Part shown: piece by piece, positions 29,701-45,649 of the stretch
How positions within the stretch are numbered: the stretch's first letter is position 1
Layout of the letters: the number at the start of each line of letters is the position of its first letter
Source: Deltaproteobacteria bacterium
Lineage (GTDB): Bacteria > Desulfobacterota_D > UBA1144 > Nemesobacterales > UBA2774
NCBI GenBank assembly: GCA_040223695.1
Contig: JAVKFU010000015.1
Span: 632,692-696,691, forward strand
DNA: 64,000 nt
Direction: 5' to 3'
Made by a program: the position numbers and the translations under genes
The notes under the pieces: generated by a model
Databases searched by the model: none
The model's input: the letters and a program-made list of their open reading frames with translations, nothing else
What the model was told of the DNA's origin: nothing

Positions 29701-29995
29701 ATTCAGAATGTTATTTTTTTACTTTTCCCGACATCACAGAATTGGTGTGAAGAAAATCGCTTGTTAATGCGTTAAGAAATATTTTAGGACGATTCCGAAC
29801 AAGCGAGGAATCGGACGCCCTACGCTATATACAATAATGTTCACATTCTTGCCTCAGCTAACCGCGAACTAATCAAGGAGGAATTAAAACATTTTAGCGT
29901 TAACATGAGATTTTTAGCCATATTCTGTGGAGTCGATGATTTTTGCTTCTTTTCATCAAGGAAAAGAAGAATCTATCTTTGCCTTTTAGTCGCTA
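29701..29995. repeat. modular composite intergenic repeat (modules B-C-D), copy 1
   Basis: Contains tcccgacatcacagaattggtgtgaagaaaat, ggacgattccgaacaagcgaggaatcggacgccc and ggaattaaaacattttagcgttaacatgagatttttagcc...gatttttgcttcttttcatcaaggaaaagaag. All three modules are shared with copies at about 34.96, 45.76 and 63.76 kb. Confidence 0.8.
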
Positions 29996-30091: not shown

Positions 30092-33000
30092 TCAATTCAG
30101 TCTCTTCGCCCCCGCATCCTGTATCGCGCTCCTCAGTCTTCCGCCCTGCCGTATGCTCCTCACCAGCATGTTCTCTATCTCGGTCCCTATCGACGCCGCC
30201 GTAGCCCCCGAGCCTCCGTTCACGTTCACGTTGATATCCACATGCATCTCGCCTGAGCCTCCCTCGTCTCCGCCTATCCTCTCGACAAACCTGCTTAACA
30301 GTCCGTCCCCTGTGCCTATACTCTCACGGAACTGGTCCGCAAGCCCCGGCCCACTCGCCACAGCGCTCACGAACTGATTTATCAGCCCGGCCCTCAGCTG
30401 CACGAGCTGGTCCTCGGTCAGCACGGCCTCCCTTCCGTGCAGCACCGCAAGCGTCCCCCTGCCGAAGTCCCGTATCAACCCTCCCGTGCCCTCGGCGAAA
30501 CCCTGCACGTTCTGCAGCACCGACTCTATCGACCTCAGCACCACAAGCTGCTCGTCGTTTATACCCGCTATCGCCTGAAGTCCCTCGATCTCGTTATCGA
30601 ATCCGAACTCGCTCACTTCCTCGAGCTGCGCAAACCTCTCCTCCAGTATCCTTATATACTCCCCGCGTATGAACTCAAACAGCTCTATCAGCCTCTGCGA
30701 CGCCTGGAATGTATTCTGCGCCGTCTGCTCCCCTATGGCCGACAGCCTGTCCTGCAGCGCCTCTATCCGCGCGTCTATCCGCTCGATCTGCGCGTTCTGC
30801 TCCTGGGTCAGCCTCTCTATCTCGGCGTTTATCTCCTCTACTGACCGCCCCCTCGTCTCGGTCAGCTCCGCAAGCGCGTCGAGCCCTCCTGTTACCTGAT
30901 CGAATATAGCCACGAACTCGGGCGAATTCACTCCGAACGCGTCCCCGGCCACGTCGAACAGGGTTTTGAACGCGTCCTCGAGCCGGGCTACGATCTCGAC
31001 CTGCCTTTCGGGATCTACTGTACCGGCAAGCTCCTGCTGAAGCTGCGCAATATTCGACTGTAGCGCGTTTACCTGCTCCACTCCCGTGAGCACCGACTCC
31101 GGGCTGAACAGTATCGAGTCGAGCGTACGCCTTATGGATTCCGCAAGCGACGCGAACTCCTCCGCCAGCCTCAGCTCCTCGTTAAGCGCGTCTATACGCT
31201 CGTCAAACGCCTCCTGTATCCGCTCCTTCTCCTCGTTAAGCCCGTCTATTCTTCTCTCTATCGCCGCTCTTTGCGCCTCGGCAGCCCTTCGGGCCGCTTC
31301 CTGCCGCGCCTGAAAAGCCGCCTGCTCTTCGGCGAGCAATTGGTTCCCCAATCCCGCTAGGTCGTCCAGCAGCGCCTCCTGCTCCGAAAGCGACAGGTTC
31401 TCTATATTGTCCGTAAAGAAGCCCTGCACCTGCCCAATCGCCGTATTGAGGAACCCGGTCAGGTCCACTGAGCTTCCGCCGAATCCCGCGATAGTGCTGT
31501 TAAGCTGGCTTATCTTCCCAATCAGGCTCGATATGGAGCTTACGATTTCCGACGTCAGCGACAGTATCGCGTTTCTCAGCTCGACGTAGTTCTGCACCGT
31601 CTCCGGGTCAAGCTCTGCGTTCTTGATTAATTCCCCTAGCTCTTCCGTCAGTTGATCAATGGACGGCACGGCGTCGAATCCGAGCGTCCGGGAGAGCGAA
31701 TTTACGGAATTAATAGTCGTCCCTATCGCGTCATTTATATTCCCCTCTACTATGTTGAACGCATCGACAAAGGCGTTCAGATCGGCAAGCAGATCCTGCC
31801 CCACTGCCGCTCTCGCCTCCCTCGACCCTGCGCTCTCGAATTCCCGGAATCTCTCGTCGAGGAACGATGCCGCCGCATCGGGCAGTACCCCGAGCGACTC
31901 GAACATGGTCTGCAGGAATCCGTCCACCGCGAACAGGAACTTCGCCTGTATCTCCCCGTTTATAAGCTGATTGAATTTCTCCGCTATCTTCTTCCCCTTG
32001 GCGTCAAACTCGAAAAGCCTCTCCCCCGCGACTACCGTCTCCGTATCAAGCTCCGTATTCAGAAGCTCGTCCGTGAGCTTGTCCGCGAGGTCAGCCGGAA
32101 GCTTGTTGATAATATCCAGAAGGTTATTTACTGCCCCCTGTATCGCGTCGCCTAGAATCTCCTTTATCTTATCCGAGCCGCCAACGCCCAAACCGGCGCT
32201 TCGCTTTACGGATATGTCTATTATGTCGTTTATCAGGGTATCGGTGTCGAGCAGTTCGGATATAAACGCCGCCCTGCGCTCGCCTTCTTCTTTTATGCTG
32301 TCAAACTCTATGTCCAGACGAGGTGTCTTCTTGAATAAGCCGGATAGTAATGGGATGGCTAATGCCGCGGCAACGGCAACTGCACCGAGAATTGACAAAG
32401 CTCCACCTATCCCGCCAATACCTGCAAGAAATCCGGTTGATGGAAGCTCCCCGGCAGCTAAAGTCCCTACACTCACTCCACCGGTCAATCCTCCGACACC
32501 GAGACTTCCTGGCACAGCTGTAGCGGGTATTGTTGCAGCCGCTCCGCCTGCAAATCCAAATAGACCTGCAATTCCGGAACCGCCACCTAATATATCTCCA
32601 ATACTTCCGCCTATACCACCAACACCGCCAACAATATCTGCGCTTCCTCCAGCGCCTCTGGCACTTCCTGCCAACCCGAACAGTGCCCCAATACTTACCA
32701 CAATCTGCTTTGTGACAATCGCCGCAACAAGGTCGAGAAACGACCTGAGTATCGCCTCAAAAGCCTGCTTCACCAAGTCCTTTAAATCCTCAAACTTCCC
32801 GGTCAGCACGTTGAAAAATAAGTCGGAGAAATTCTGACTCATCTGGCTGAGTGTGTTAGCAAAGAAATCCGCTATGAGTTCACTATTCGACCCTACGGAT
32901 TCAACAAAATCCTCGAACCCCTGTTTTATTCCCTCAAAGAATCCGCCAGATTCATTCAGGTTTTCCACTCGCTCCGAAAACTCATCTAACCCCCCATCCG

Positions 33001-34027
33001 CCGCCGTTTGAGCCGCAGTATCTACACCCTCCACACTCGTGCTCATCGTGTCTATAGACTTGCTTGCTTGTCCGGTCTGGTCTATCACACCTTGAAGCCC
33101 GTCTTGACTTAGGTTGTTGGTAGATTCTGTAACATCCTCAGTAACACCGAGAAGTTCCCCCAACTCTTCTTTCGTATGCCCGAATATTACTGCCCCTTCC
33201 CCCGCGTTTTTAACTAAATCAACAAGAGATGTCGAAAATTCACCCTGCGCTGTAGTCCCTTCCTTCATCGCCGCAGACTGCTCCAAGGCCGATTCTCTAG
33301 CTTTATCGTATTGCAGACTAAGACCCTGTAATGTCAGACGGAGGGTCTTAAAACCCCTGTCTTGTTCATCAATTGCCCTTTGTAATTGCGTTGATACTGA
33401 TGGTCCAATAAATTCCTCTAAGCCACGACGTTGAAAATCCTCAACTTTTAGGTCAGGAATGTCAACCGTTAATTCAGGAATTTCTATACCCTCGATTTTA
33501 CCAAATTCTTCATTCAAATCACTCTGTAGCGCTTCTCTATATGCCTGCGCTAACTCTTCAATTGTTCTTCCTTTCGCAAGAAATTGTTCAAATTGTCTTT
33601 TAGCTATTTCTTGCAAATTACCTTCAATAGGTTCTGCTTTTTGGGGATTAACAAAAGGTCTTAGATCTACTGGCAAATCAACTATCACGCTTTCATTAGT
33701 GAACGGTTCCAGAATATCTTTAATAAGCAAGTTGATATTATGACCAATTTCCGCAGCCTGTTCACCACCAATCAACTTTGCAGCGTTCGTTAAAATATTT
33801 CCAAATGGAGAATTTGTTTTAAAAACTCTGTCAAATGCAGATTCCGCTTGTTTCATTGACGATTCAACATCTTTATTAAACTTGAAAAAAGTAGATTCTG
33901 ATGTTTTAGTAATAAACTCAAATCCGTCTCTAAATTCTTCGAATGTACTATTAGCTGTCTTTCCTAATTGTATTAATTGCTCATCTTCTACAATAAACTT
34001 GACCGTAATTTCATTTATCTCTGCCAT
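30092..34027 (-). CDS. giant helical protein, phage tail tape measure protein-like
   Basis: 1311 aa with no signal peptide. Long coiled-coil segments. A central Gly-rich hydrophobic block, GGIGGSIGDILGGGSGIAGLFGFAGGAAA...ALAIPLLSGLF, is typical of tape measure proteins. An AT-rich promoter region lies upstream. Confidence 0.5.
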   Translation of the reverse strand: MAEINEITVKFIVEDEQLIQLGKTANSTFEEFRDGFEFITKTSESTFFKFNKDVESSMKQAESAFDRVFKTNSPFGNILTNAAKLIGGEQAAEIGHNINLLIKDILEPFTNESVIVDLPVDLRPFVNPQKAEPIEGNLQEIAKRQFEQFLAKGRTIEELAQAYREALQSDLNEEFGKIEGIEIPELTVDIPDLKVEDFQRRGLEEFIGPSVSTQLQRAIDEQDRGFKTLRLTLQGLSLQYDKARESALEQSAAMKEGTTAQGEFSTSLVDLVKNAGEGAVIFGHTKEELGELLGVTEDVTESTNNLSQDGLQGVIDQTGQASKSIDTMSTSVEGVDTAAQTAADGGLDEFSERVENLNESGGFFEGIKQGFEDFVESVGSNSELIADFFANTLSQMSQNFSDLFFNVLTGKFEDLKDLVKQAFEAILRSFLDLVAAIVTKQIVVSIGALFGLAGSARGAGGSADIVGGVGGIGGSIGDILGGGSGIAGLFGFAGGAAATIPATAVPGSLGVGGLTGGVSVGTLAAGELPSTGFLAGIGGIGGALSILGAVAVAAALAIPLLSGLFKKTPRLDIEFDSIKEEGERRAAFISELLDTDTLINDIIDISVKRSAGLGVGGSDKIKEILGDAIQGAVNNLLDIINKLPADLADKLTDELLNTELDTETVVAGERLFEFDAKGKKIAEKFNQLINGEIQAKFLFAVDGFLQTMFESLGVLPDAAASFLDERFREFESAGSREARAAVGQDLLADLNAFVDAFNIVEGNINDAIGTTINSVNSLSRTLGFDAVPSIDQLTEELGELIKNAELDPETVQNYVELRNAILSLTSEIVSSISSLIGKISQLNSTIAGFGGSSVDLTGFLNTAIGQVQGFFTDNIENLSLSEQEALLDDLAGLGNQLLAEEQAAFQARQEAARRAAEAQRAAIERRIDGLNEEKERIQEAFDERIDALNEELRLAEEFASLAESIRRTLDSILFSPESVLTGVEQVNALQSNIAQLQQELAGTVDPERQVEIVARLEDAFKTLFDVAGDAFGVNSPEFVAIFDQVTGGLDALAELTETRGRSVEEINAEIERLTQEQNAQIERIDARIEALQDRLSAIGEQTAQNTFQASQRLIELFEFIRGEYIRILEERFAQLEEVSEFGFDNEIEGLQAIAGINDEQLVVLRSIESVLQNVQGFAEGTGGLIRDFGRGTLAVLHGREAVLTEDQLVQLRAGLINQFVSAVASGPGLADQFRESIGTGDGLLSRFVERIGGDEGGSGEMHVDINVNVNGGSGATAASIGTEIENMLVRSIRQGGRLRSAIQDAGAKRLN

Positions 34028-34217
34028 TTCCAGTACCTTGATTAACGTATCGACAAATTAATCTTTCACTATACGTTTACTTTATTCCTTAGATAGATTT
34101 ATAGGTGTTTGCTTGCAATCCCTCTATATTTAGAACCCTTTATTTATATTGTTGATTAATGGATACATATATGTAATTACTTAACTAGACTTCATATTCT
34201 TATTCTTTTATAATAGC

Positions 34218-34544
34218 GTGATGAAAGAAATCTGCTCCAATTGTCTTTACACCGGTGAGTCCGGTCATAGCGGAAGAAATGCTTGCAGGTTCCCTTTGGC
34301 GGGCCTGCTATTGGGAGTGGGTGTAAACGGTATTACAAGCGTAATACCGGATAGTGAAACTTCCGGTTCCACGCTCGTACTCGTAATAATTACTATTGCT
34401 TGTTTATTTACCGCCTTCTATTTACTTTACAGGTGTATCAATAAGAGCAGGAGAGCATGTCCCAAGTGTAACTATGGCGATATGATTGAGATGAATACCC
34501 CGGAAGCGGACAAACTAGTGGAGCAACATAGCCTGAAAAATTAG
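34218..34544 (+). CDS. split zinc-ribbon membrane protein, paralog 1 of 4
   Basis: N-terminal CSNC, two TM helices, C-terminal CPKCNYGDMIEMNTPEADKLVEQHSL. Confidence 0.55.
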   Translation: MMKEICSNCLYTGESGHSGRNACRFPLAGLLLGVGVNGITSVIPDSETSGSTLVLVIITIACLFTAFYLLYRCINKSRRACPKCNYGDMIEMNTPEADKLVEQHSLKN

Positions 34545-34566
34545 TTTTATATTCTCAAATACAAAC

Positions 34567-34914
34567 ATGCAAAAACTTTGCCCAGAATGTAACTATATTG
34601 GATACGAATCCCGTGGACAGAAATCACTTTTAATATGGGGAATAGCTTTAACTATTTGGGGAGCAATAACACTACTTGGCGCACTTATGCTTTATTCCTT
34701 TTCCGTTAGGATACTTGCGTCAGTAATTTGGCTCTCATTTGGTGTTGTTACCTTATATTACTACATTCATTACCCAAACATATGCCCAAACTGCAAGCAG
34801 AAAAAAACCATGATCCCTCTCGACACTCCCAAAGCCCAGGCCCTAATTAAAGATCACAACCTGACTATCCCGCAAGAAACATCACAACAGTCCAGCCCCA
34901 AAACCACTCAATAA
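34567..34914 (+). CDS. split zinc-ribbon membrane protein, paralog 2 of 4
   Basis: MQKLCPECNYIGY..., two TM helices, ...CPNCKQKKTMIPLDTPKAQALIKDHNLT. Confidence 0.55.
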   Translation: MQKLCPECNYIGYESRGQKSLLIWGIALTIWGAITLLGALMLYSFSVRILASVIWLSFGVVTLYYYIHYPNICPNCKQKKTMIPLDTPKAQALIKDHNLTIPQETSQQSSPKTTQ

Positions 34915-34959
34915 CCGAACATATCTACCATCCTTTTTTATCTGTCATTCTGAATGTAA

Positions 34960-35245
34960 ATTAGAAATCTCGTCTTTGTATTACCCTTCTCGACATTCAC
35001 GGAATTGGCGTTAAGAAAATAGAATATTGAGGCGTAAAAATCTTTCCGGGACGATTTCGAGCTAGCGAGGAATTGGACGCCCTTTCCTATAAGAAATAAT
35101 GTAATTAGTCTCGCTTCACTAAACCACGATTCTAATCAGGGTTGAATTAAAAGATTTTAGCCGAGATAGCCCATTTTTAGCCACATTCCGTGCAGTCGGT
35201 GATTTTTGCTTCTTTTCATCTAGGAAAAGAAGAAAGATGATTTAT
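34960..35245. repeat. modular composite intergenic repeat, copy 2 (full length)
   Basis: About 85% identical over about 280 bp to the 45.76-kb copy. Confidence 0.8.
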
Positions 35246-35655
35246 CTTTTTCCCGCCCAGCCTGAACCTTTCGAAGAATGTCATTTAGAGCGCAGCCGAG
35301 AAATCTATTCATTTATCCTTTAGAGTCTGTCATTCTGAACCCTGTCCTGAACTCGTTTCAGGATCATTTCAGAATCTCGATTTTCATCTTTCAATCCTTT
35401 AATTCCCTCCTTAGTAAAAGGAAACGAATGCGAACGTGTGAGCATTTAGACGCCTTTAGTTAAAAGCACTTATGCCCATTATCTACCGGCACATAAACTC
35501 TTGGAATAAAATAGGGTGGATTTAAAATACAATATAAAAACCTCACCTACGCCGCTAGCCTATACTCCACTTCCTCTACATTAACCTTATTATCATATAA
35601 CTGAACGACCACTCTCCCTTCATCCTCAAAATCCCAACTGTGTTATAATTTCCTG

Positions 35656-36030
35656 ATGCAAAAACTCTGCACCAATTGCAATTTCATCGGCAAAGGTAAG
35701 CACGGCCTCTTGTCCGGCAATATCTATGTCGGAATAATAGAAGTAGTTGTGGCGGTAATTATACTCTTTACAGGCCAGAAGCTCCTTCAGTCTTTTATAT
35801 ACGGAGCCGTGGTCGCGGCAATAGTAGCAATAGCCGGACTGATAAATATTATGGACTCGTTCTCGGAGGGCCGGCTCTGCCCTAACTGCGGCAAGGACAA
35901 GATGATCCCGCTCGACACTCCCAAAGCCCAGGTCCTCATCCAAGAACACAACCTCACAGTCGGCGATAATGTCCCCCAAAACACGCAGAATGACCAAAAA
36001 CCAGACCAGTTTGAAGCCCCCAAATCTTAA
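35656..36030 (+). CDS. split zinc-ribbon membrane protein, paralog 3 of 4
   Basis: MQKLCTNCNFIGKG..., two TM helices, ...CPNCGKDKMIPLDTPKAQVLIQEHNLT. Confidence 0.55.
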   Translation: MQKLCTNCNFIGKGKHGLLSGNIYVGIIEVVVAVIILFTGQKLLQSFIYGAVVAAIVAIAGLINIMDSFSEGRLCPNCGKDKMIPLDTPKAQVLIQEHNLTVGDNVPQNTQNDQKPDQFEAPKS

Positions 36031-36214
36031 ATCCATCTCTTAACTTCCATTCATAACCAACTATTATTCCAACATATTTATAGTAACACTGCAATACTTC
36101 GACCCACCTTTGCAACCACAGCGCCACAACCCCGCTTTTGTTTTTTTCATTCCCCCCCTTAGAAAAAGGGGATACAGGGGGATTTTTCCTATTTCTTATT
36201 CCCTAATGCCTTTT

Positions 36215-36395
36215 CCTTTCCCGACATTCACAGAATTGGCGTTAAGAAAACAGATTATCGAGGCGTGAAAATCTTTTAGGAATGGGGCTGAATTAACAGA
36301 TTTTAGCCGAGATGGTCTGTTTTTAGCCAAATTCTGTTAAGTCGATGATTTTTGCTTCTTTTTATCAAGAAAAAGAAGATATAATTTTTTGCTTT
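36215..36395. repeat. modular composite repeat, partial copy (modules B+D)
   Basis: Contains cccgacattcacagaattggcgttaagaaaacag...gatttttgcttctttttatcaagaaaaagaag. Confidence 0.7.
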
Positions 36396-36522
36396 TTTCC
36401 CTTGTCACTACATGTCGGGTAAAACCTCTCGGCAATCTCAAACCCCCCTTATCCTGAGCCCGGTCAAAGGATAAATACATGCCCCGCTTTCAATCCCTCA
36501 CCCATCCATTATCCTATCCCTG

Positions 36523-36930
36523 GTGAAAAAACTCTGCACAAACTGCTTCTACATCGGATACGAAGACAGGTCCACACACGGGAGCTTCAAGACCGAGTCC
36601 ATCCTCTGGGCGGTTGCCTTTGTCCTCGCATTCACGGGCGTTTTCGAGTCCGACCTATGGCTGCCGGCAACCATAACATTCGCACTCGCCTTTTTCTATA
36701 CTCTGACCATCTTCAGGGTAAAGATATGCGTCTGCCCAAGGTGCGGCCGCGACTCCATGATCCCGCTCAAAACCCCCAAGGCGGAGGCTATAATTCATGA
36801 GCACCACCTCGTGATGCCCAGCGAATTCAAAAATCCTGCGCGCACGATCTTCGGCCTCACATTCCGCGACGCGCTCCTCATCCTCACCACCATCCTTATA
36901 ACCGTCATGCTCTACAACCACTTCACCTAA
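36523..36930 (+). CDS. split zinc-ribbon membrane protein, paralog 4 of 4 (GTG start)
   Basis: VKKLCTNCFYIGY..., TM helices, ...CPRCGRDSMIPLKTPKAEAIIHEHHL. An extra C-terminal TM helix is present. Confidence 0.5.
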   Translation: MKKLCTNCFYIGYEDRSTHGSFKTESILWAVAFVLAFTGVFESDLWLPATITFALAFFYTLTIFRVKICVCPRCGRDSMIPLKTPKAEAIIHEHHLVMPSEFKNPARTIFGLTFRDALLILTTILITVMLYNHFT

Positions 36931-36939
36931 CTACTCATT

Positions 36940-37900
36940 CCCACTTAATCCTTTTTCTCCCTCTCTCTTGAGGGAGAGGGTAAGGGTGAGGGGGCACCTT
37001 CTGTTAAGTCGGCGATTTTTACTTCCTTTCATCAAGGAAAAGAAGATATAATTTTTTGACTTACCCTTGTCATTGCGAGCGCAGCGCGGCAATCCCAAAT
37101 CCGTCATGCTGAACTTGTTTCAGCATCTAACCCTTTGCCTTTCCCCTTCCGTCATTCTGAATTCATTTCAGAATCTAGAATTTTGCTTTTGCCTCCCTTT
37201 CACCCCTCCATAATCTCAAGAATCCTATTGACTCCATACCCCCAAATCATCTATAATAATTACGGAGGTAATTATGACAAGCGAGTGTGACAGCCCACCA
37301 GACAGGTTGGTCGAAAATTCGTGAGATCCGAAAATGGTGAGTACTTAAACAATCACCATAAATAATAGCTAAAACTAGCTATTGCTTAAAAAAAGCATAC
37401 AAACCAAAAAGGGAGCCACAGTGCTCCCTTTTCCATTTCTAGATATAGTAAACATTATTTGTCATTACAAACGAATGTGAGAAATCTAACCCTTGCTTTT
37501 TCTTCGTCATCGCAAACCGCAAAGTGGAACGACAACGTCGCATTATCGAAGTTTGTCATGCTGAACTACGATTTCGAGTAAGTAAGGAATCGGGTCCATT
37601 GACAAATTGCAACCGAGTAAGTATTCCCCTATCATGCCAGTCCAAACCCAAAACTTTCAGCATCTAGCCTTTCGTCTTGTCCATTCTGACATTCACATAA
37701 TTAGCGTCAAGAAAATCTTATGTTGATGCGTCAAAATGTTTTGGGCCGGGGCGGAATTAAAACATTTTAGCGTTAACATGAGATTTTTAGCAATATTATG
37801 TGCAGTCGGTGATTTTTGCTTCTTTTCATCTAGGAAAAGAAGAAAGTCTTTATCTTTTAGTCATTGCGAGTGGAGCATATTATGCGTAGCGCGGCAATCT
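36940..37900. repeat. about 1-kb non-coding cluster of stacked repeat units
   Basis: Contains the gagggagagggtaagggtgagggggc hairpin, a D-module end at 37.00-37.05 kb, gtcattgcgagcgcagcgcggcaatc, gtcatgctgaa, cattctgaattcatttcagaatc, a gtcatgctgaactacgatttcgag...gaggaatcgggtcc C-type unit, and a B+D composite at 37.69-37.87 kb. Confidence 0.75.
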
Positions 37901-37910
37901 AATCTTTTCA

Positions 37911-38240
37911 TTAAGAGCCAGCAATACCCCTACGGCGCCCGAGAGCCTCAATCCCTTCCCCCTTGGCGCCCCTTTTCATTTTCCTCTCCTGAGACTTCAG
38001 GGCAAACTCTCTGAACGCCTCATCCACGGCAATCACTACCCGAAACGCCCTCATCTTCGGATGCCCCTCGAACTCTAGCTTCTCCAGGTTATTCCATATC
38101 TCGGAATGCACCAGTGTGCCTACGGTCATCCCCTGCCCGTAGCGCTGAGACTGGCATAGCTCCCATAGAGATACCCACTCCCGCTGGTGCTGGGGGAGGT
38201 TCCGTATAAATCCTTCCGTCTCGTCCCCCGCCTTTTTCAA
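37911..38240 (-). CDS. downstream -1-frame ORF of a G/GT-like pair (candidate frameshift extension)
   Basis: Its frame is open upstream to about 38476, so it overlaps the last about 52 codons of the 38321..38890 ORF in the -1 frame. No conventional start or RBS of its own. Basic sequence. Confidence 0.4.
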   Translation of the reverse strand: MKKAGDETEGFIRNLPQHQREWVSLWELCQSQRYGQGMTVGTLVHSEIWNNLEKLEFEGHPKMRAFRVVIAVDEAFREFALKSQERKMKRGAKGEGIEALGRRRGIAGS

Positions 38241-38320
38241 TATGCGAAGCTCGTCCCTGTCGTTCTTTTCAAACTTGAGCCTGTTCTTCCGCCTGAGTTT
38301 CCTCTTTTCTTCGAGCTGAC

Positions 38321-38890
38321 TTACCCTGCGTCTGATTGAGTCTGCGCGGTACCTTCTTTTTTCCCCTTTGAAGCGGACTTCGAATCCCTCGTATATCCGC
38401 TCGAAGTACTCCCTGACTCTTCCAAAAAATTTTCCTCTTCTTTCTTCTCCTCCTTCGTGACCTTGCCGGCTATGAGCTCATAGCTCGACCTGAAGTTGCT
38501 AAGCAGGAAAGAGGACTTACAGAACTCATTGTAGAGCCATTCTTTAGTGTCCTTGTCGTATAGCACCCGCTCGCCCTTGTCGGTAAGCCCTGTAATGTCC
38601 TGTATGAGGTTATATACCAGGAACTTCGCGGCGCGCTTCGGGTCTCCTCCGAGAATCTTGAAGCTCCTGTCCTCGACAGTCAGGTCTTGCGTAAGGTCCC
38701 TTATCTGAGTAAGCCTCGCCACTGTCGGGTACGGACACTTGAACCCCACCTCGCGCCAGCCCTCGTCGTAACCCACCCACTCGCCTTTCTCGTCCTGGTA
38801 AGCGGGCCAGTCCTCATCCTCTATATCCCTGTAGGGATATATCGTCACATAATTTGATACATGTTTGGTCAAACTCTTAATTTCAGGCAT
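38321..38890 (-). CDS. acidic protein, phage tail assembly chaperone (gpG)-like candidate
   Basis: 189 aa, acidic (EDEDWPAYQDEKGEWVGYDEGW). Its 3' end holds T TTT TTG (about 38422-38428) and GGGGAAAAAAG (about 38355-38365), both inside the overlap with the downstream -1 ORF. Confidence 0.4.
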   Translation of the reverse strand: MPEIKSLTKHVSNYVTIYPYRDIEDEDWPAYQDEKGEWVGYDEGWREVGFKCPYPTVARLTQIRDLTQDLTVEDRSFKILGGDPKRAAKFLVYNLIQDITGLTDKGERVLYDKDTKEWLYNEFCKSSFLLSNFRSSYELIAGKVTKEEKKEEENFLEESGSTSSGYTRDSKSASKGKKEGTAQTQSDAG

Positions 38891-39130
38891 ATCCCCTCCT
38901 TTACACTATTGCACTATGTCATTCTGAACTTCGTCCTGAACTCGTTTTTCAGGATCTATTCAGAATCCAATCCCTTCCCGCTCATCCTGAGCCTAGTCGA
39001 AGGATGTCATTGAGTGGTTGCAAAGCAACAGCGGCAATCCCGTCTTTCTCTCGTCATTGCGAGCCGCAAAGCGGCGCGGCAATCTCGTCCTTTCCCCTCA
39101 ATCATTTAATCCCCTACCGGGAAAAGAAAA

Positions 39131-39178
39131 GCTAAAAAAGGGCTGTTAGCATTCATTTATTGAATATAAACAGCCCCT
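39131..39178 (-). terminator. rho-independent terminator after the 491-aa gene
   Basis: Minus-strand hairpin aggggctgtt-loop-aacagccct, followed by a TTTTTT run. Confidence 0.55.
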
Positions 39179-39190
39179 TAGCAATAATCC

Positions 39191-40666
39191 TTAAACAACG
39201 GCCTCAACCATATCCTCAACTGTTGGCTGGTTGTTCTTCACCGTAACTGTAATGTCCGTATTCGGCGCGCTGCTGGTATCAAGCCTGCCAAGGAAGCTCT
39301 TCTCATCCGTCACCGGGTCCTTCGAGCTCACGCCCGGATGCGGACTCCCCTCGAACTTGGCTTTGGGCACGCTCATTGTCACCTGATGGCTGTTGTCACC
39401 GATATAGGTCCATATAAAGTCGAGCTGCGTCTCTGTTCCCGCAACTGTCTTCTCAGCGAATTGCTGGCTTCCGTACTGATAAGTGAATGAGCCGCTTACA
39501 GATCCTTCCCCGGGGGTGATCGCGCCCTTGATCGGCGACCCTACGACGAAGTTACCCTGTATGGTATTCTCGATCACGAGACTCAGGTTTTCAAACTGGT
39601 TTGTGGTCTGCTCCACACTGTCCACCTGCACGCTCGATTCCCAATGTGCGTAAGGAATGTTTTCAATCGAGGCCGGAGTCCCGAATATGTTCTCTGACAG
39701 TATTTGAAATGCCTTCCCTACTACGTTCATATTGAGCTGCGGAAGGTCGGTCGGGTCCACGTTAAGAGTAAGATTGCTTACCTTGTTCCCCCTGATAAGC
39801 ATGAGCGATTCAATATCGGTAAACCTCAGAAGGAAACTGATACCCTCGGGAATGGTGGAGCCTCTATAAATCGTATGTGTGAAGGGTTTAATTACTTCAT
39901 CGCACGCCGCCCCGTTAGAGTGAGCCTTCCTGAGCCCGTTGGGATGAGCAGCCGAGTCCAGCGTAAGCTGCCCCGCAGCCGTGCTGCCTATCTTTACAAT
40001 CTCTGCGTCATTTCCCGTGCTTAACTGAGCAAACTCACCGGCTGCGAAACCAACTTCGGATGTCACTGATACCGTTGTATCTCCGGCGGAAGCCGCTGCC
40101 GACAAAGTCGTACTTGCCCCCGCTGTTGACGTTCCGACTGTGGTGTAATCACTATTCAAGGCGTGTAAGTAAAACAGCCCCACTGTCGCTATATCGAGCT
40201 CAACAGTCATATCCGCTCCTGTGTCATAGTTTCCCTCACGGAAGTTTGAAAGTACACGCGAGCCGGAGAGCGCCTGCGACCTCTGCAGATCTCTTCCGCC
40301 GGACGGTGTGAAGGACCTCACGTTACCTAGCTTGAACCAGTTATTAGCCGGGTCTACCTCAACCACAGCCTCCCCCGATTCATGCCTGTAGTTTATCTTT
40401 GTGTTCGCGTCGAGACTCACCGTCGTGCCAGACACGTAACCTGCATCCACCTTTACGAATTCCATATTGTTGTCGTTCCCGACCTTAAGAATATCCCCCG
40501 CCGCGATATTAGTATCGCTCGCTACCGTAACGCTAGTCGCTCCGGGGTTAACAGCTGCGGCAAGCGTAGTGGACGCTCCGCCCCCGACCGCGGCTGACGG
40601 CGTCACGCCGTTTACCTGTTCAATCTTGTACCAAATCTCCGCACTTGAGCCTGAAGCCTGTGCCAT
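39191..40666 (-). CDS. hypothetical structural protein with two tandem ~100-aa N-terminal domains; possible phage major tail protein
   Basis: 491 aa, no signal peptide. Thr/Ser/Ala-rich and beta-rich. An internal duplication is visible (ASTTLAAAV...TSVTVAS...AAGDILKVGND / ASTTLSAAASAGDTTVSVTSEVGFAAGEFAQLSTGND). The phage assignment rests on gene-order context only. Confidence 0.3.
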   Translation of the reverse strand: MAQASGSSAEIWYKIEQVNGVTPSAAVGGGASTTLAAAVNPGATSVTVASDTNIAAGDILKVGNDNNMEFVKVDAGYVSGTTVSLDANTKINYRHESGEAVVEVDPANNWFKLGNVRSFTPSGGRDLQRSQALSGSRVLSNFREGNYDTGADMTVELDIATVGLFYLHALNSDYTTVGTSTAGASTTLSAAASAGDTTVSVTSEVGFAAGEFAQLSTGNDAEIVKIGSTAAGQLTLDSAAHPNGLRKAHSNGAACDEVIKPFTHTIYRGSTIPEGISFLLRFTDIESLMLIRGNKVSNLTLNVDPTDLPQLNMNVVGKAFQILSENIFGTPASIENIPYAHWESSVQVDSVEQTTNQFENLSLVIENTIQGNFVVGSPIKGAITPGEGSVSGSFTYQYGSQQFAEKTVAGTETQLDFIWTYIGDNSHQVTMSVPKAKFEGSPHPGVSSKDPVTDEKSFLGRLDTSSAPNTDITVTVKNNQPTVEDMVEAVV

Positions 40667-40803
40667 ATTGTTCCACCTCCGGTTTTTATATAAAAAAGCC
40701 CGGAACGGCCTGAACCGCCCGGGCTTATATTTTTAATTTGTTATTAGTCATCCTGAATTTATTCAGGATCTAAACTTTTATGATCTAATCCGCTTTCATG
40801 AGA

Positions 40804-41931
40804 CTAGTAATTGATAATCTTCCCGTTCTCATCCCATCCTGTAGTCCTCTGATACTGGCTTTGAAAATCATTACGCCAACTGTCGTTCCACTTCCAGTCG
40901 CCGCTTTTTATCTTCCACGTGTTATAGTCCACACTGTTGTCAGCCGATTCGGCATCGAAAACTTCCAGCGCAGCTACACCGGGGTTAGCGCTCTGGAAAT
41001 AGTTATTTTGAATCTCATTATTCGAACTCTTCCATATGCCCAGATGAGTATGGCTCGTATCGTCTGTTGAAGGATACTTTTCAAGTATAAATTTATTATT
41101 GGTAATTCTAGAATTTCGCACATGATGATATATGGCCATTCCCCAGGAATTATCCTCGATCAGGTTTTTTTCGATATCCAGATTTTCTATCCAGGTTGAG
41201 CATTTCGAGCCGTTCATCTGAATCCCCCTGCCCCCGTGATTTCGTATTACGTTACCGCGAATAGCAACTCCGGAAATCCCCTTGCACTCGAAATCAGATA
41301 GATATATGCCGTGGCAGTGTTTGGGACTCGAGCCCCGCCAGTCCTTGTTGTAGCACTCCCCTTTTCCAGTCCCGTTCGACTCTATTATGTTATTTTCGAT
41401 TGTTATATTATCAGTCGATATGATCAGGATTCCCTGATACGTGTTTCGGTGAATTTTATTATTCCGTATGATATTATTGCCTTTGTAAAGCTTTACCCCG
41501 TCCCAGCCTTTCATTACTTCAAAACCCTGAAACACGATCCATTCGGCGTCGATCTCGACCCTGTCGCCTTCGCCCTTTCCCGGAACGATAATAGGCTTAT
41601 GTCCGGGGTAGGCTTCGATTGTAATCGGTCTCAGACGTGTCCCGCTGTTTTTGACAACAATTTTTCCGGTATAGACACCGCCTATTACCCTGATAATATC
41701 ACCCGGGACTGCTGAATCGACAGCTCCCTGTATGGTTGTGTAATCGCCGTTAGCGCCCGGCGCAACTATCTTCACAGATGGCAAGCGCGCACCTGCTGAT
41801 TCGACGCAATCAGCGCAGCTGGAAGGATCGGAGAGAGTGTAAACGCCTCCCACCACAGCCGGGGCCTGGTCGATAAAATATAGAGGTAAAATTGCAGTCA
41901 AGACAACTGACAGAATTGCCGTCGATTTCAT
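40804..41931 (-). CDS. secreted right-handed parallel beta-helix repeat protein (pectate-lyase-fold; possible depolymerase/tailspike-like)
   Basis: Signal peptide. Repeated NNxIxxN / GxxIxxN beta-helix coils: NNIIRNNKIHRN, ITIENNIIESNG, IRGNVIRNHGG. Confidence 0.6.
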   Translation of the reverse strand: MKSTAILSVVLTAILPLYFIDQAPAVVGGVYTLSDPSSCADCVESAGARLPSVKIVAPGANGDYTTIQGAVDSAVPGDIIRVIGGVYTGKIVVKNSGTRLRPITIEAYPGHKPIIVPGKGEGDRVEIDAEWIVFQGFEVMKGWDGVKLYKGNNIIRNNKIHRNTYQGILIISTDNITIENNIIESNGTGKGECYNKDWRGSSPKHCHGIYLSDFECKGISGVAIRGNVIRNHGGRGIQMNGSKCSTWIENLDIEKNLIEDNSWGMAIYHHVRNSRITNNKFILEKYPSTDDTSHTHLGIWKSSNNEIQNNYFQSANPGVAALEVFDAESADNSVDYNTWKIKSGDWKWNDSWRNDFQSQYQRTTGWDENGKIINY

Positions 41932-42204
41932 AATTTACCAGTTGGCTTCCAGACTTGGCGCTGGATAACCGTTTAATATTATAACTGCCAGACATAGTAA
42001 ATAGCTTTTTACGAATTTAATGCATCTTCCACCAGCCTCAGAACCCGACAAAGATTTTTATTTTCCCCTTCCTTTAACATTTTTTACCTTTTACGTTTTT
42101 AAAAATCATCCTGAATTCATTTCAGGATCTCGTCTTTTATAGATACATTCGCAATTTCCCGCCGGTTTCTAGAGCACAACGTCCGTCTATATAAAAATCG
42201 GCTA

Positions 42205-42906
42205 TTAATAAATAGTCCTCCAGGCATAAGCATCCGCCGCGTCCTTTGCGCAAACTTCAATAGTATCCTTTACTCCCGCATTACCTTCTACCATCCAAAA
42301 TTTGCCTCTTTCAGAAACGCTGCAAGTTGGTTTAACAACAGCCCCTCCGTTATCAGAAATTTTAATCCCCCCCGCTTCAACGGAAACCAGGCTCTTTGCA
42401 TAAATACTATCGGGTCTATTGGCGCCGGTTTTCCCAATATCGCCGCTTGCGTCAGTATTAAATATAAAATCACCATCGTAAATTCTAACTCCAATAACAC
42501 GAGAAATACTAGCTACAACAACTCCGTTACCCCAAAACTCAATATTGTTAACACCATTCATTTTAATTCCAGTATCGTCATCTTCGCCTACCAGTCTCTG
42601 GTCAAATATAATTATGTTGTTAGCACCACCTTGGCCTATAACTGTCTGGTCACTTGTATTGACTGAAAGTAAATTTATATCTGCTGTATTAGCTGCGTTC
42701 CTAGCTTTTATAAGAGTAGAGTTATTAGGACCTTTCAGTGAAGCAGAACCAGTTAGGTTGATATCGCCCGCCATACTCCCGCCGGATTTCGGCAGGACAT
42801 TGGAGGGAATTATAATGTCTGCTTCAATAATATCCTCATTGATCTGCGATTGAGCATAACTTGAAATAAGAATTATAAATACGATAACGAGTATAAATTT
42901 TCTCAT
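42205..42906 (-). CDS. secreted protein with tail-fibre-like SGGSMAGDINL motif
   Basis: Signal peptide. LPKSGGSMAGDINLTGS resembles the GG[ST]M[TA]G motif of phage tail fibre proteins. Confidence 0.4.
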   Translation of the reverse strand: MRKFILVIVFIILISSYAQSQINEDIIEADIIIPSNVLPKSGGSMAGDINLTGSASLKGPNNSTLIKARNAANTADINLLSVNTSDQTVIGQGGANNIIIFDQRLVGEDDDTGIKMNGVNNIEFWGNGVVVASISRVIGVRIYDGDFIFNTDASGDIGKTGANRPDSIYAKSLVSVEAGGIKISDNGGAVVKPTCSVSERGKFWMVEGNAGVKDTIEVCAKDAADAYAWRTIY

Positions 42907-42950
42907 GGATTTCTTTTTTACCTCAATTCACCATTCATTCCGAATGTCCC

Positions 42951-43676
42951 TCAGTTTTTCCAAACTCTACGAGTACTGCCTCCTAGCGGCTGCTTTATTT
43001 CAGCTGCTACAGCAGCCCAATCATTACTTGCACTACCGCTCCAATCATATGTTTGACTTGATGAACTTATGGCAGTAACCCCGCTGATGGACAAATCAGG
43101 TCCCTCTGCTATATTTGCTTGCTCTGTCTGTCCAAGATCAGCAGAAAAAGTCAATGCCGCATTGTCTTTATAACACCCTAATGCAATATTTGCACTTTCA
43201 CCGTTTATGGCATTAGGCACGTGAGTAAGAGCTATGCTTGTAGATGCAGCCGCTGTATTTGAAGCGGTTATATCAGGTGCTTCATCGGCTGCATCTATAA
43301 TCGAAACAGCTATCGCTATTCTGTCTGCTGAATTTGCGCTCAAATCGAATGAGACTGTATTTATGCCGATTGCCGGATTTGTAAGATAATAAATAGAACA
43401 AACACGTAAATTATTATTTATCTGGTCAACGGCTTCCGTCAAAGCAACACCGTTATAAGTTAATGAGCTCACAGATTTTGCGGAGGTACTCTCTACACCT
43501 ACTAACACTACCAGGTAATCACCGTTATTGTCATGATTAAAGGTAAGAGTTGCTTGGTTCGTACCCGATCTCTGAGCAGAGGTTACATTACCAATAGAGA
43601 TAGAAAAAGCACTCTCATAAGCTCCAAAAAACATTAATAATAAAAATAAAGCCATATTAACAATAAAACGCGTCAT
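42951..43676 (-). CDS. hypothetical secreted protein (paralog A)
   Basis: Signal peptide. The C-terminal ...GGSTRRVWKN is shared with the next gene. The two genes overlap by 4 nt. Confidence 0.45.
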   Translation of the reverse strand: MTRFIVNMALFLLLMFFGAYESAFSISIGNVTSAQRSGTNQATLTFNHDNNGDYLVVLVGVESTSAKSVSSLTYNGVALTEAVDQINNNLRVCSIYYLTNPAIGINTVSFDLSANSADRIAIAVSIIDAADEAPDITASNTAAASTSIALTHVPNAINGESANIALGCYKDNAALTFSADLGQTEQANIAEGPDLSISGVTAISSSSQTYDWSGSASNDWAAVAAEIKQPLGGSTRRVWKN

Positions 43677-44386
43677 TTCCAGATTCTCCTCGAATTTCCA
43701 CTTGCCTGCGGTTCAGGGATGGCAAAGGCTATAGCCCCCCAGTCTTTTGCGCCACTGCCAATTGTCCAATCCATAAGGAATGTCCCAGTGCTTGCCATGT
43801 TTTTTGTTGACGAGCCTATCTCCAAACTAAAGGAAAATGCTGCTGAATATTGTAAAGTTTGCCCTATTCCATCGGCCGTAAAACCTGCGTTGGCGTTATA
43901 CCCGACGCAATCTACAATTATAGAGTTAGCGTTTGTGGTCGTTACGCTGATTTGTGGGTCATTACTAAGTCCGGAGGCCGTTTGTGTCACATCCGGCGCG
44001 CCGTCATTCGCTCCATTTAAAGTCATACCACCCGCTGTGATATTCTGAGAAGCCGAAAGTGTTACTTCTATATTCGCTGTCGTTACGGTAGGGCGGCTTA
44101 GATAAGCAAACCATATAGTTGTACCGCCCTGAGTTACTGTCGTAACCGTCATTGCTTCGGAGGTGTTGAATTCGACACTAGATACTGTTGTGGTGCCGCT
44201 GTTATAAACTCCGCAGGCAGTCAAATAATCCTCACCTGTATTTACGACCTGACTCCATGAATGGGTCGTTGCCGTTCCATTATAAGTTGACGTAGTTCCT
44301 ACGGTCGGGACTTGCGAATAACTTGCAGTGGCAAACGGAAACAATACGACAAATAAAATAAATGTATATCCAAAAACTTTAGTCAA
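43673..44386 (-). CDS. hypothetical secreted protein (paralog B)
   Basis: Signal peptide. The C-terminus reads ...SGNSRRIWK. Confidence 0.45.
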   Translation of the reverse strand: MTKVFGYTFILFVVLFPFATASYSQVPTVGTTSTYNGTATTHSWSQVVNTGEDYLTACGVYNSGTTTVSSVEFNTSEAMTVTTVTQGGTTIWFAYLSRPTVTTANIEVTLSASQNITAGGMTLNGANDGAPDVTQTASGLSNDPQISVTTTNANSIIVDCVGYNANAGFTADGIGQTLQYSAAFSFSLEIGSSTKNMASTGTFLMDWTIGSGAKDWGAIAFAIPEPQASGNSRRIWK

Positions 44387-44416
44387 TTAACAAAACTCCC
44401 TTAATCTATTGGGAAA

Positions 44417-45267: not shown

Positions 45268-45312
45268 TTTCAAAACACTAGCAGATATAATCTAGTAAGG
45301 AATAAAAAGGGC

Positions 45313-45358
45313 ACAAAAAAAACGGAGATGATGTTCTCAGTCTCCGTTCCTTTTGTTT
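45313..45358. terminator. bidirectional rho-independent terminator
   Basis: aaaaaaaa-AACGGAGA-tgatgttctcag-TCTCCGTT-ccttttgttt. An 8-bp stem is flanked by A8 on one side and a T-rich run on the other. Confidence 0.6.
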
Positions 45359-45443
45359 AAATCTTTGTGGGGCGTTGTTCGCCCATTGATATATAAATTA
45401 TACAAATTACACCACGCTGTCAACAACCTTTTTTAAGCTTCTT

Positions 45444-45644
45444 TTAAAAAGTCTCATAGCTCCCATTCGTCATCCCAAGCTCCGCACCCTTTTTTTCATA
45501 GGAGAGCATTTTGCCGTCAATAAAGCCGAACCTTAGCTCAAGCGCCCTCCCCTCCTTCTCAGCAAGCCCGGAGAGAACCTCCTCAGCCCGCTCCCGGTTT
45601 ACGGTATCCCTCATATCTGCCGGCAGCAAATGCAATATCCTCAC
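45444..45644 (-). pseudogene. relic of a sigma-70 (RpoD-family) gene: region 4 fragment only
   Basis: RAEEVLSGLAEKEGRALELRFGFIDGKMLSYEKKGAELGMT aligns with sigma-70 region 4.2 (VL.GL..RE..VL.LRFG...TLEEVG..FGVT). Homology ends abruptly after GMT. Regions 1-3 are absent. Confidence 0.5.
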
Positions 45645-45649
45645 AATTC

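Follow-up and report, generated by a model that had tools for sequence, protein, structure and literature searches.

Tandem genes for predicted split zinc-ribbon membrane proteins beside the tape-measure gene of a prophage remnant: a candidate superinfection-exclusion array

In phage lambda the rexAB genes lie behind cI, and lactococcal Sie2009 lies between repressor and integrase. HK97 gene 15 takes a different position, flanked by the tail chaperone genes on one side and the tape-measure gene on the other, and its product is an exclusion protein of the inner membrane (PMC3594210). Other systems are directed at the tape-measure protein or at DNA entry: the prophage-encoded exclusion lipoproteins of the TP-J34 Ltp type (PMC3952083), the prophage-encoded Tab, a soluble protein of 83 aa (PMC10884400), and the cellular defence SNIPE, a TM-anchored nuclease (PMC13190303). 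For protein design we compare LITAF, in which two CxxC knuckles make one cytoplasmic zinc-binding module, with a hydrophobic membrane anchor between them (PMC5142333).

The locus described here lies in a 64-kb stretch of DNA (the window) and has the HK97 gene order. Its tail genes described here are on the minus strand. The tail tube protein (39191..40666, 491 aa) matches PF18906 Phage_tube_2 with an E-value of 1.4e-17. Next comes a candidate for the G-like tail assembly chaperone (38321..38890, 189 aa), in which a GGGGAAAAAAG run spans 38366-38356, and then a T-like ORF (37911..38240) whose frame is -1 with respect to G and stays open from 38477. The G-like gene has homologs at 91% and 81% identity in the related loci L001 and L003; because it matches nothing in Pfam or PHROG, the G/GT label rests on position and frameshift geometry. 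The tape-measure-like gene (30092..34027, 1311 aa) has homologs at 54% (L001) and 39% (L003) identity. With this G/T-like pair, tape-measure-like gene and tube neighbour identified, the placement of the array between G/GT-like and tape-measure-like genes in a first-pass annotation of the DNA holds. That annotation did not mention that the four array genes run in the direction opposite to that of the tail genes; a divergent, AT-rich intergenic region (34028..34217, 26.8% GC) separates the tape-measure start from the first of them. GC3 of the tape-measure gene drops from 0.75 in its 3' third to 0.36 in its 5' third, and a low-GC mosaic patch spans that 5' third together with the first two array genes. 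No RNA gene turned up when the window was scanned with Rfam and for tRNAs. The prophage is a decayed, truncated remnant, yet all four array genes are intact.

These four genes, all on the plus strand, are genuine paralogous protein-coding genes. Paralog 1 (34218..34544) encodes 108 aa if read from GTG 34218, but ATG 34221 (107 aa) is the more likely start. Paralog 2 (34567..34914, 115 aa) starts 22 nt past the paralog 1 stop, and the two are probably co-transcribed. Paralogs 3 (35656..36030, 124 aa) and 4 (36523..36930, 135 aa) follow at wider spacing. The set had been described as same-strand genes of 108 to 135 aa, and the four proteins can be aligned end to end; their invariant residues include C..C in the N-terminal part and CP.C....MI..TP.A......H.L close to the C-terminus. 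Their similarity is far above chance, as pairwise BLASTP E-values run from 3.6e-6 (paralogs 1 and 2) to 1.6e-20 (paralogs 2 and 3). Paralog 1 is the most divergent copy; its motif reads MIEMNTPEADKLVEQHSL and departs from the consensus proposed for all four. The reported composition trend, AT-richer in paralogs 1-2 and GC-richer in 3-4, was confirmed (GC 0.44, 0.41, 0.49 and 0.54 in gene order; GC3 0.48, 0.39, 0.59 and 0.75).

Small ORFs in a repeat-rich, AT-biased region, overlapped by antisense ORFs of comparable length, might be chance ORFs or non-coding repeats. We rejected this explanation as wildly improbable, given protein-level conservation over hundreds of clusters, dN/dS below 0.4 and invariant Cys residues. 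For paralog 4 dN/dS was 0.17-0.36, compared with 0.05-0.06 for the G and tube genes and 0.27 for the tape-measure gene. Proteins identical to paralog 1 (P0050, 107 aa, on a Logan contig), paralog 2 (P0002) and paralog 3 (P0001, from a Deltaproteobacteria MAG) were found. Paralog 3 has an ortholog at 71% identity in L003, and paralog 4 has orthologs at 48-73% identity in L001, L002 and L003 and at about 70% in L020 and L021. In other genomes paralog 1 is joined to a paralog-2-type domain in a single fusion protein; such fusions are common, which argues that neighbouring paralogs work together.

Each paralog has the same layout: an N-terminal CxxC, a two-helix membrane hairpin, a CPxC, then a conserved strand and helix. 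The two to three TM helices expected from the first reading resolve into two hydrophobic helices in paralogs 1-3 and a third, C-terminal one in paralog 4 (residues 108-131, approximately). Among 72 relatives C5 is conserved in 97% and C8, C75 and C78 in 100%; in a broad alignment all four Cys are conserved at 90% or more. Charge follows a positive-inside pattern: K+R counts are 3.4 for the N-terminal segment and 4.3 for the C-side, whereas the inter-helix loop has 0.1. This would place both CxxC halves in the cytoplasm rather than on opposite membrane faces. We made AlphaFold2 models of paralog 3 and of one two-domain fusion protein. In the former (pLDDT 77), helices 23-44 and 47-70 form a hairpin, and strands at 3-5, 11-12, 74 and 83-85 are predicted at both knuckles (pLDDT 81-85). 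Cys conservation, charge and model together argue for the earlier proposal that the two halves form one cytoplasmic zinc ribbon, split by the membrane hairpin, and we consider this likely.

The likeness to the LITAF/SIMPLE-like domain (PF10601) is architectural only. Both have CxxC, hydrophobic anchor and CxxC in order, with the halves on the cytoplasmic side (predicted for the array proteins), and the 22-residue LITAF anchor is comparable to the Pro-Gly stretch of about 20 residues in the short-form relatives introduced below. LITAF differs in its monotopic anchor, where the long forms of the window have two full TM helices, and in having no counterpart of the conserved MIP-x-D-[ST]-P helix. 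Membership in PF10601 was rejected, since the best score was 15.6 bits against a threshold of 23.8 and only 2 of the 72 members matched at all. Nor did hhalign show a relationship to human LITAF (probability 1.4% for A3 and 3.5% for A5, with a hand-entered LITAF sequence).

The paralogs are members of a large family of small inner-membrane proteins that is carried by viruses and has no name. A profile search found 96 relatives at E ≤ 1.6e-12; an exhaustive search found 953 cluster representatives at E ≤ 1e-3, or some 950 clusters at 50% identity, and a second protein search with the broad alignment gave 22 matches and little new. The family had not been recognised at first reading, and nothing scored above threshold when the paralogs, the 72 relatives and the short forms were run against Pfam, NCBIfam, PHROGs and PADLOC. 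Generic zinc-ribbon knuckles and weak LITAF-like matches were all that came up. None of the four paralogs matched a component model of PADLOC-DB 2.0, a sequence-profile search of the PDB gave no meaningful match, and the searches run found no sequence or fold kinship to known exclusion or defence proteins. No match came from tblastn against plasmids, or against cultured phages with a long form. The one cultured phage with a homolog is Ralstonia phage PQ43W (PP405626), where the gene, number 60 at 41385-41630, is unannotated. We regard the family as very probably a real accessory phage membrane-protein family.

In related Thermodesulfobacteriota the position of the array is conserved: the layout tape-measure gene (minus), members (plus), then T, G and tube (minus) is found in the window and in L001, L003, L007, L008, L010, L011, L012, L014/15, L017 and L021, giving at least 10 related phage or prophage loci at the chaperone/tape-measure junction. 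Arrays hold one to seven members. The homologs sit in phage or prophage loci, vary in copy number and are not single housekeeping genes. Of the two observations that the first-pass annotation said would refute it, such housekeeping homologs and CxxC pairs on opposite membrane faces, neither was made, and the suggestion of a cargo role is well supported. The carriers of the array are uncultured organisms. In common with HK97 gp15, the array occupies the niche of a siphovirus accessory gene at the chaperone/tape-measure junction that codes for a small inner-membrane protein, in HK97 made from the prophage (PMC3594210). It differs in its opposite strand, its one to seven copies, its predicted Cys4 zinc ribbon and its putative leaderless promoters. 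PHROG and Pfam family scans showed no homology to HK97 gp15/YebO. Small lipoproteins, a class shared with Ltp, or secreted proteins occupy the same island in related loci; in fold and topology the array proteins are unlike Ltp (lipoprotein), Tab (soluble) and SNIPE (TM-anchored nuclease).

Array members are 26-71% identical between loci, compared with 81-91% for G, and so diverge faster than the tail genes. They are also kept in the remnants L002, L005/6 and L020, where the chromosomal flanks of the window are present and every tail gene has been lost. This retention could be due in part to recent decay rather than selection. It would also suit a lysogenic-conversion function unrelated to phage, in envelope physiology, metal handling, signalling, or recruitment of a partner through the C-terminal helix and tail. 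The C-terminal peptide is conserved, in paralog 2 types together with a tail predicted to be disordered, and resembles a docking motif, and in eukaryotes the LITAF-like architecture is a membrane anchor (PMC5142333). However, the members diversify fast, their copy number is in flux and tape-measure fragments are interspersed among them, which looks like an arms race rather than physiology, and the neighbouring genes include no recurrent partner of metabolic or regulatory kind; we judge this function unlikely.

The same loci bear on the idea that these are holin- or antiholin-like proteins that time lysis, which would suit small proteins that carry charge at their ends and have two or three TM helices. 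Paralog 2 even matches Phage_holin_3_6 weakly (E 0.055, sub-threshold), but no holin family was hit at threshold. The array runs on the strand opposite the late genes and away from endolysin; the scanned flanking genes of the window include no endolysin, and the amidase of L001 is on the other strand, with the tape-measure gene and one more gene between it and the array. Multi-copy arrays that outlast the tail genes, and short forms that are co-oriented with repressors, also fit poorly with lysis timing, which we think very improbable.

Relatives of a short form, in which a Pro-Gly hydrophobic hairpin of about 20 residues replaces the two full TM helices, are abundant in viral contigs. Viral contigs were searched with a degenerate DNA motif, and genome contigs were scanned with a single protein. 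Of 80 IMG/VR motif matches retrieved, 79 were true members, and one narrow motif alone gave at least 115 IMG/VR contigs. In a Pfam scan of nine short-form loci, five had a CI/Cro-type HTH gene directly upstream on the same strand (one of these also with a Peptidase_S24), and in two further loci an integrase adjoined the short form. With a home-made HTH profile, the arrangement of repressor then short form was found in at least 17 of 70 loci. The short forms are thus placed much like rexAB and Sie2009, with no homology to either, while the long forms of the window lie in the tail region and not in an immunity module.

This linkage invites comparison with Rex. A Rex-type abortive-infection or defence effector would be made along with the repressor and, on infection, would open or otherwise disturb the membrane, or bring in a partner, for instance a nuclease, without blocking entry. 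The array proteins are likewise small and membrane-embedded, and in L089 the gene after the short form is a staphylococcal-nuclease homolog. Yet the loci examined have no constant partner gene, PADLOC gave no match, tandem arrays and same-domain fusions are atypical of Rex-like pairs, and the precedent beside the tape-measure gene is entry exclusion and not Abi. We give such an effector only a small chance.

Promoter-like signals lie close to the start codons. A promoter-like site upstream of paralog 1 (34186..34214, plus strand, TAGACT-17-TATAAT) has its -10 box ending 6 nt short of ATG 34221, a spacing that points to a leaderless transcript. Paralog 3 has an extended -10 box (35641..35649, plus strand, TGtTATAAT) that also ends 6 nt before its ATG, again in leaderless geometry, and paralog 4 has a -10-like TATCCT (36510..36515, plus strand) 7 nt before its start; paralog 2 has no -10 box of its own. 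Of 10 further paralog-4-type orthologs inspected, 9 have TATCCT at equal spacing and one has TATCAT. Across the family, TAnnnT ending 6-8 nt before the start codon was found in 25 of 29 members compared with 2 of 33 control genes, and an SD-like motif in 1 of 29 compared with 18 of 33. The pattern suggests that members are leaderless, independently transcribed units, which would permit their expression in lysogens.

Such promoters weigh on a further possibility, that the proteins help their own phage in infection or tail assembly, for example as membrane factors aiding its own tape-measure protein. Members of this lineage invariably adjoin the start of the tape-measure gene, tape-measure 5' fragments accompany them in L007, L010, L012, L014 and L017 (tblastn found none in the array spacers of the window itself), and the low-GC patch takes in the tape-measure 5' third with paralogs 1 and 2. 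But a helper would not be expected on the opposite strand under its own leaderless promoters, to persist without any tail genes, or to have short forms in immunity modules far from tail genes. Moreover, the product of the producing cell is no aid to entry into the next cell unless packaged. We find a helper role very improbable.

Two other elements lie in the region. The first-pass annotation had each paralog preceded by a repeat cassette. The repeat is instead a genome-wide, MITE-like interspersed element of about 190-270 nt, present in about a dozen full or partial copies in the window (including 29.7, 35.0, 36.2, 37.0, 37.7, 45.8, 47.1, 58.0 and 63.9 kb) and also in intergenic DNA of related genomes. 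Copies near the array are at 34970..35270 (plus strand), 36200-36410, 36995-37072 and 37676-37864; they precede paralogs 3 and 4 only, occur twice after paralog 4, and are absent before paralogs 1 and 2. We therefore rejected the cassette, dispersed as it is, as part of the gene family; the split zinc ribbon, the unrecognised family and the cargo role of the annotation are supported. The second element, which may be part of the paralog system, is a small conserved unit 3' of paralog 4 (37228..37433, plus strand). It comprises TTGACT-18-TATAAT, GGAGG, a 16-codon ORF (37275-37325) and three hairpins, with a terminator at 37406-37433. L002, L010 and L021 have it too, at 72-74% identity across some 220 nt, each time immediately downstream of their paralog 4 ortholog.

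The best explanation as a whole, to which we give about an even chance, is that these are moron-like, prophage-expressed membrane proteins that use a split zinc ribbon to exclude phages. The array would be a moron-like accessory island of a siphovirus lineage in Thermodesulfobacteriota, inverted between the G/GT and tape-measure genes. Each gene or gene pair, with what appears to be its own promoter and a leaderless mRNA, would yield product from a repressed prophage independently of the late tail operon. The N-terminal CxxC and C-terminal CPxC knuckles would form one Cys4 zinc ribbon at the cytoplasmic face, linked by the membrane hairpin, and the proteins, in the inner membrane of the lysogen, would exclude other phages as HK97 gp15 does from the equivalent genomic position. 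Perhaps assembled as hetero-oligomers, they might interfere with the DNA entry that the tape-measure protein mediates. Superinfection exclusion is the most plausible function, on the basis of position, expression signals and analogy. An anti-phage role of any kind we rate slightly above even; a block of DNA entry through the tape-measure protein we rate below even. Other prophage-expressed membrane functions would also fit the tape-measure adjacency, fast evolution and retention in remnants.

A bolder version, which we consider unlikely, would make the family the prokaryotic-virus counterpart of the eukaryotic LITAF design, in which a zinc ribbon is clamped to a membrane hairpin, and have it serve as a modular, hetero-oligomerising gatekeeper of the inner membrane. 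Exclusion would then be combinatorial and diversify in step with the N-termini of tape-measure proteins: each paralog, or pair of them, would keep out a different tape-measure type. The domain would have been reused behind the repressor in many unrelated temperate phages. The tandem paralogs, the fusions and the co-travelling tape-measure 5' fragments would reflect such an exclusion system.

A -10 box placed 6-8 nt ahead of the start codon with no SD, the leaderless signature, can serve as a simple marker for finding such genes. The exclusion hypothesis is directly testable, since Ralstonia phage PQ43W is cultured and carries a homolog. The family occupies two classic niches of prophage-expressed genes, behind the repressor and at the chaperone/tape-measure junction, and no phage exclusion protein is known to have its predicted design, in which a membrane hairpin splits a zinc ribbon of the cytoplasmic face. 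If our reading is true, there is a large, wholly unannotated family of prophage-expressed membrane proteins that would bring a new protein class into anti-phage defence at the entry step, help to learn how tape-measure proteins pass through the inner membrane, and give the LITAF membrane anchor a natural analog in bacteria.

The four genes of the array lie on the plus strand at 34218–34544 (p1, 108 aa, or 107 aa from the ATG at 34221), 34567–34914 (p2, 115 aa), 35656–36030 (p3, 124 aa) and 36523–36930 (p4, 135 aa). Their products can be aligned end to end, with pairwise BLASTP E-values of 3.6e-6 to 1.6e-20, confirming the first-pass annotation of four same-strand paralogs; p1 is clearly the most divergent. 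Invariant in all four are an N-terminal C-x2-C and, near the C-terminus, C-P-x-C followed by M-I-x2-T-P-x-A-x6-H-x-L. The C-terminal consensus first proposed does not fit p1 literally.

A profile built from the paralogs found 96 proteins at E ≤ 1.6e-12, all unannotated and all from metagenomes or from MAGs named Deltaproteobacteria or Thermodesulfobacteriota. An exhaustive profile search gave 953 cluster representatives with E ≤ 1e-3, of which 129 reached E ≤ 1e-10; of the top 150, roughly one in four is a two-domain fusion. Fusion of p1-type with p2-type domains occurs in relatives, which suggests that adjacent paralogs act as hetero-oligomers. One member, P0222, is on a 3.9-kb contig labelled as a Heimdallarchaeaceae MAG; it is closely similar to the member at 7581–7964 of related locus L001, so this is likely a mis-binned phage contig. 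As expected for a family not recognised at first reading, no model of Pfam, NCBIfam, PHROGs or PADLOC reached threshold for p1–p4, 72 relatives or the distant short-form relatives, and a sequence-profile search related no solved structure to the family. Pairwise dN/dS among p4 orthologs was 0.17–0.36, indicating a coding sequence under purifying selection, looser than for the G and tube genes of the tail module (0.05–0.06) and similar to the tape-measure gene (0.27).

Hydropathy and AlphaFold2 modelling gave two membrane helices in p1–p3, and a third, C-terminal, in p4. The four cysteines are 97–100% conserved among 72 relatives. Lys and Arg together average 3.4 per N-terminal segment and 4.3 across the 30 residues past the second helix, but only 0.1 per inter-helix loop, so that by the positive-inside rule both CxxC halves would be cytoplasmic. 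The AlphaFold2 model of p3 (pLDDT 77, pTM 0.53) has short strands at residues 3–5, 11–12, 74 and 83–85, helices at 23–44, 47–70 and 89–97, and a disordered tail, the picture expected if a zinc ribbon is split by a helical hairpin. Conservation, charge and modelled strands all support the split zinc ribbon on the cytoplasmic face that had been proposed. Fold searches returned only generic helical hairpins. The eukaryotic LITAF domain likewise has two CxxC pairs around a hydrophobic anchor, of 22 residues, with both halves cytosolic (PMC5142333). This likeness is of architecture only: the family's Pfam LITAF scores are sub-threshold, and the hhalign probability to human LITAF is 1.4–3.5%.

The paralogs run opposite to the surrounding tail genes, a point missing from the first-pass annotation. 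On the minus strand are a tape-measure-like gene (30092–34027, 1311 aa), a T-like ORF (37911–38240, 109 aa), a G-like ORF (38321–38890, 189 aa), a tail tube gene (491 aa; PF18906, E 1.4e-17) and two further genes, whose products are a beta-helix protein and one that resembles minor tail proteins. Relative to the 189-aa ORF, the 109-aa ORF is read in the −1 frame, which is open from 38477; a GGGGAAAAAAG run lies 45 nt ahead of the upstream stop. G/GT chaperone pairs have this geometry, and neither ORF matches a library model. Together with the 1311-aa gene and the neighbouring tube gene, the geometry upholds the placement of the array between G/GT-like and tape-measure-like genes.

The phage-like stretch spans only ∼30.1 to 46.8 kb (30092–46818). 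Ordinary cell genes border it, at one end those for an ECF sigma factor and a STAS protein and at the opposite end those for an esterase, NmrA and an MFS transporter. No capsid, portal, terminase or distal-tail gene was recognised in it; we therefore read it as a truncated prophage remnant. It holds tail genes only and stops directly past the tape-measure gene; complete relatives (L001, L017) extend further, with genes that include Gp80-family proteins, an amidase in L001 and a 1197-aa protein in L017. In loci L002, L005 and L020 the tail genes are deleted and the flanking genes are those of the window (ECF sigma, STAS, esterase, NmrA), suggesting that all represent a single chromosomal prophage site, decayed to different degrees. 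A 66-aa ORF (45444–45644, −) is retained beside the rest of the element in L002 (12337–12627, with a weak Sigma70_r4 Pfam mark) and L003 (14062–14337). Three kb from the remnant, a 533-aa protein (25405–27006, +) with TPR repeats and a HEPN_LA2681 domain (E 1e-36) is possibly a defence or toxin gene; it had no PADLOC match.

GC3 is 0.48, 0.39, 0.59 and 0.75 in p1 to p4, bearing out the GC trend noted along the array. The trend belongs to a wider mosaic: a single low-GC patch comprises the 5′ third of the tape-measure gene, a 190-bp divergent spacer (27% GC), p1 and p2, and the 3′ third of the tape-measure gene and p4 both resemble the T-like gene (0.68). Within the tape-measure gene GC3 falls from 0.75 in the 3′ third through 0.58 to 0.36 in the 5′ third, and the N-terminal ∼270 aa do not align to the L010 homolog, suggesting a mosaic joint inside the gene.

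The repeat cassette reported before each paralog precedes only p3 and p4 and also follows p4 twice; neither p1 nor p2 has a copy in front of it. Its hairpin core, GATTTTTGCTTCTTTTCATCWAGGAAAAGAAGA, has eight copies in the window, all in the same orientation; of the entire 190–270-nt unit there are roughly twelve copies, full or partial, from 29.7 to 63.9 kb (among them 29719–29987, 34970–35270, 36200–36410, 36995–37072, 37676–37864, 45767–46043, 47037–47221, 57957–58070 and 63868–64000), with further copies in intergenic DNA of related genomes and MAG loci. Given this dispersal, we reject the repeat as a feature of the paralog genes; it is a MITE-like interspersed element settled in the array spacers.

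The layout of tape-measure gene (−), family members (+), then T, G and tube (−) recurs in every related locus with enough context (L001, L003, L007, L008, L014/15, L017, L021 and the IMG/VR viral contigs L010–L012), with one to seven members per locus. Identity to the window copy is 81–91% for G, 70–79% for tube and 26–71% for matched array members. One or two intact members persist in three kinds of tail-less locus with the window's chromosomal flanks: L002 (p4 ortholog, 73%), L005/L006 (p3 and p4 types) and L020. That the proteins help the phage's own tape-measure protein we consider highly improbable. The p4 ortholog of L002 (P0009, 10001–10570) has lost its stop codon, gaining 54 codons, and an rve-family transposase gene lies ∼1 kb downstream.

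Partial tape-measure copies (5′ or middle part) are interleaved with members in L007 (3026–4339), L010 (5411–7819, 9033–11942), L012 (3164–5554, 6308–6721), L014 (3783–6371) and L017 (10069–10545), as minus-strand ORFs of 437–970 aa in the interval that separates the full tape-measure gene from the G/T genes. The junction is thus a hotspot of recombination, in which members move together with the 5′ ends of tape-measure genes; the duplicates may be scars of recombination, short but functional tape-measure genes, or artefacts of assembly. Several islands also encode small lipoproteins or secreted proteins with signal peptides on the members' strand (L001 9309–9638; L002 9107–9433; L003 7309–7698 and 7730–8128; L010 12008–12322); the window's island has no counterpart.

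Promoter-like sequences directly precede the genes: TAGACT-17-TATAAT for p1 and TGtTATAAT for p3, each ending 6 nt upstream of the ATG, and TATCCT 7 nt upstream of the p4 start. A −10-like TAnnnT ending 6–8 nt before the start was found in 25 of 29 members from 12 loci, which are related by descent and so are not 29 independent events, against 2 of 33 other window genes and 5–6% of random positions. Shine-Dalgarno-like motifs showed the reverse (1/29 and 18/33). Box and spacing were retained while the proteins diverged to 26–70% identity. This signature suggests individual promoters and leaderless mRNAs, by which the members appear to be their own transcription units, antisense to the tail operon; such predicted independent units match the definition of a moron (PMC3594210).

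Directly 3′ of p4 is a small conserved unit (37228–37433, +) comprising TTGACT-18-TATAAT, GGAGG, a 16-codon ORF, three hairpins and a terminator. The peptide is MTSECDSPPDRLVENS in the window and MGSESDTPPDYMVNNL in relatives, with synonymous changes. The unit shows 72–74% identity across ∼220 nt in L021, L010 and L002, is kept even where tail genes are lost, has an RNA fold z of −4.4 and matches nothing in Rfam; it is a candidate gene for a small protein or an sRNA.

Short-form members, of 66–110 aa, share the pattern C-x2-C-G-x2-G...K-G-S...E-x2-L-W-[hydrophobic]-P-G-L-I-Y-S-x-W-R...C-x2-C...[LM]-[IV]-P-x-[DN]-S-P. Because both knuckles must meet, the hydrophobic stretch of these short forms, which is only ∼20 residues long and has Pro-Gly at its centre, probably forms a re-entrant hairpin. 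A degenerate DNA motif for PGLIYSxWR matched 115 IMG/VR contigs, and 79 of 80 fetched encode true members. In five of nine Pfam-scanned loci a Cro/CI-type HTH gene, one also with a Peptidase_S24 domain (CI/LexA type), is directly upstream on the same strand; an integrase adjoins the member in a sixth, and in L013 the member is between a CI-like gene and an integrase. A home-made HTH profile put the upstream arrangement at 17 or more of 70 loci, a lower bound. Among cultured phages, only Ralstonia phage PQ43W has a homolog, which lies within the head module, in an island of small genes on the opposite strand.

These observations point to a phage accessory gene family, whose products are predicted to be lysogen-made and inner-membrane located. 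The closest precedent, by position, is HK97 gene 15, the original moron, located between tail chaperone and tape-measure genes; its product, a small protein of the inner membrane, keeps the DNA of superinfecting phages from entering, and the specificity lies in the phage tail (PMC3594210). The tape-measure protein is also a target of other defences (PMC10884400; PMC13190303). On these grounds we rank first the superinfection exclusion at the inner membrane raised by the first-pass annotation, whose architecture, position and unrecognised family held and whose repeat cassette did not. We lean slightly toward some anti-phage role, and offer a block to entry as a tentative proposal. A Rex-like abortive-infection effector is unlikely, lysogenic conversion with a function unrelated to phages equally so, and a role in lysis timing would be very surprising. 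The kind of element is already known: a moron-like membrane protein, presumably prophage-expressed, encoded behind the repressor or where the chaperone and tape-measure genes meet. Undescribed in the libraries and literature searched are the protein family itself, the split-zinc-ribbon design, the occurrence in tandem arrays and as fusions, and the predicted leaderless promoters.
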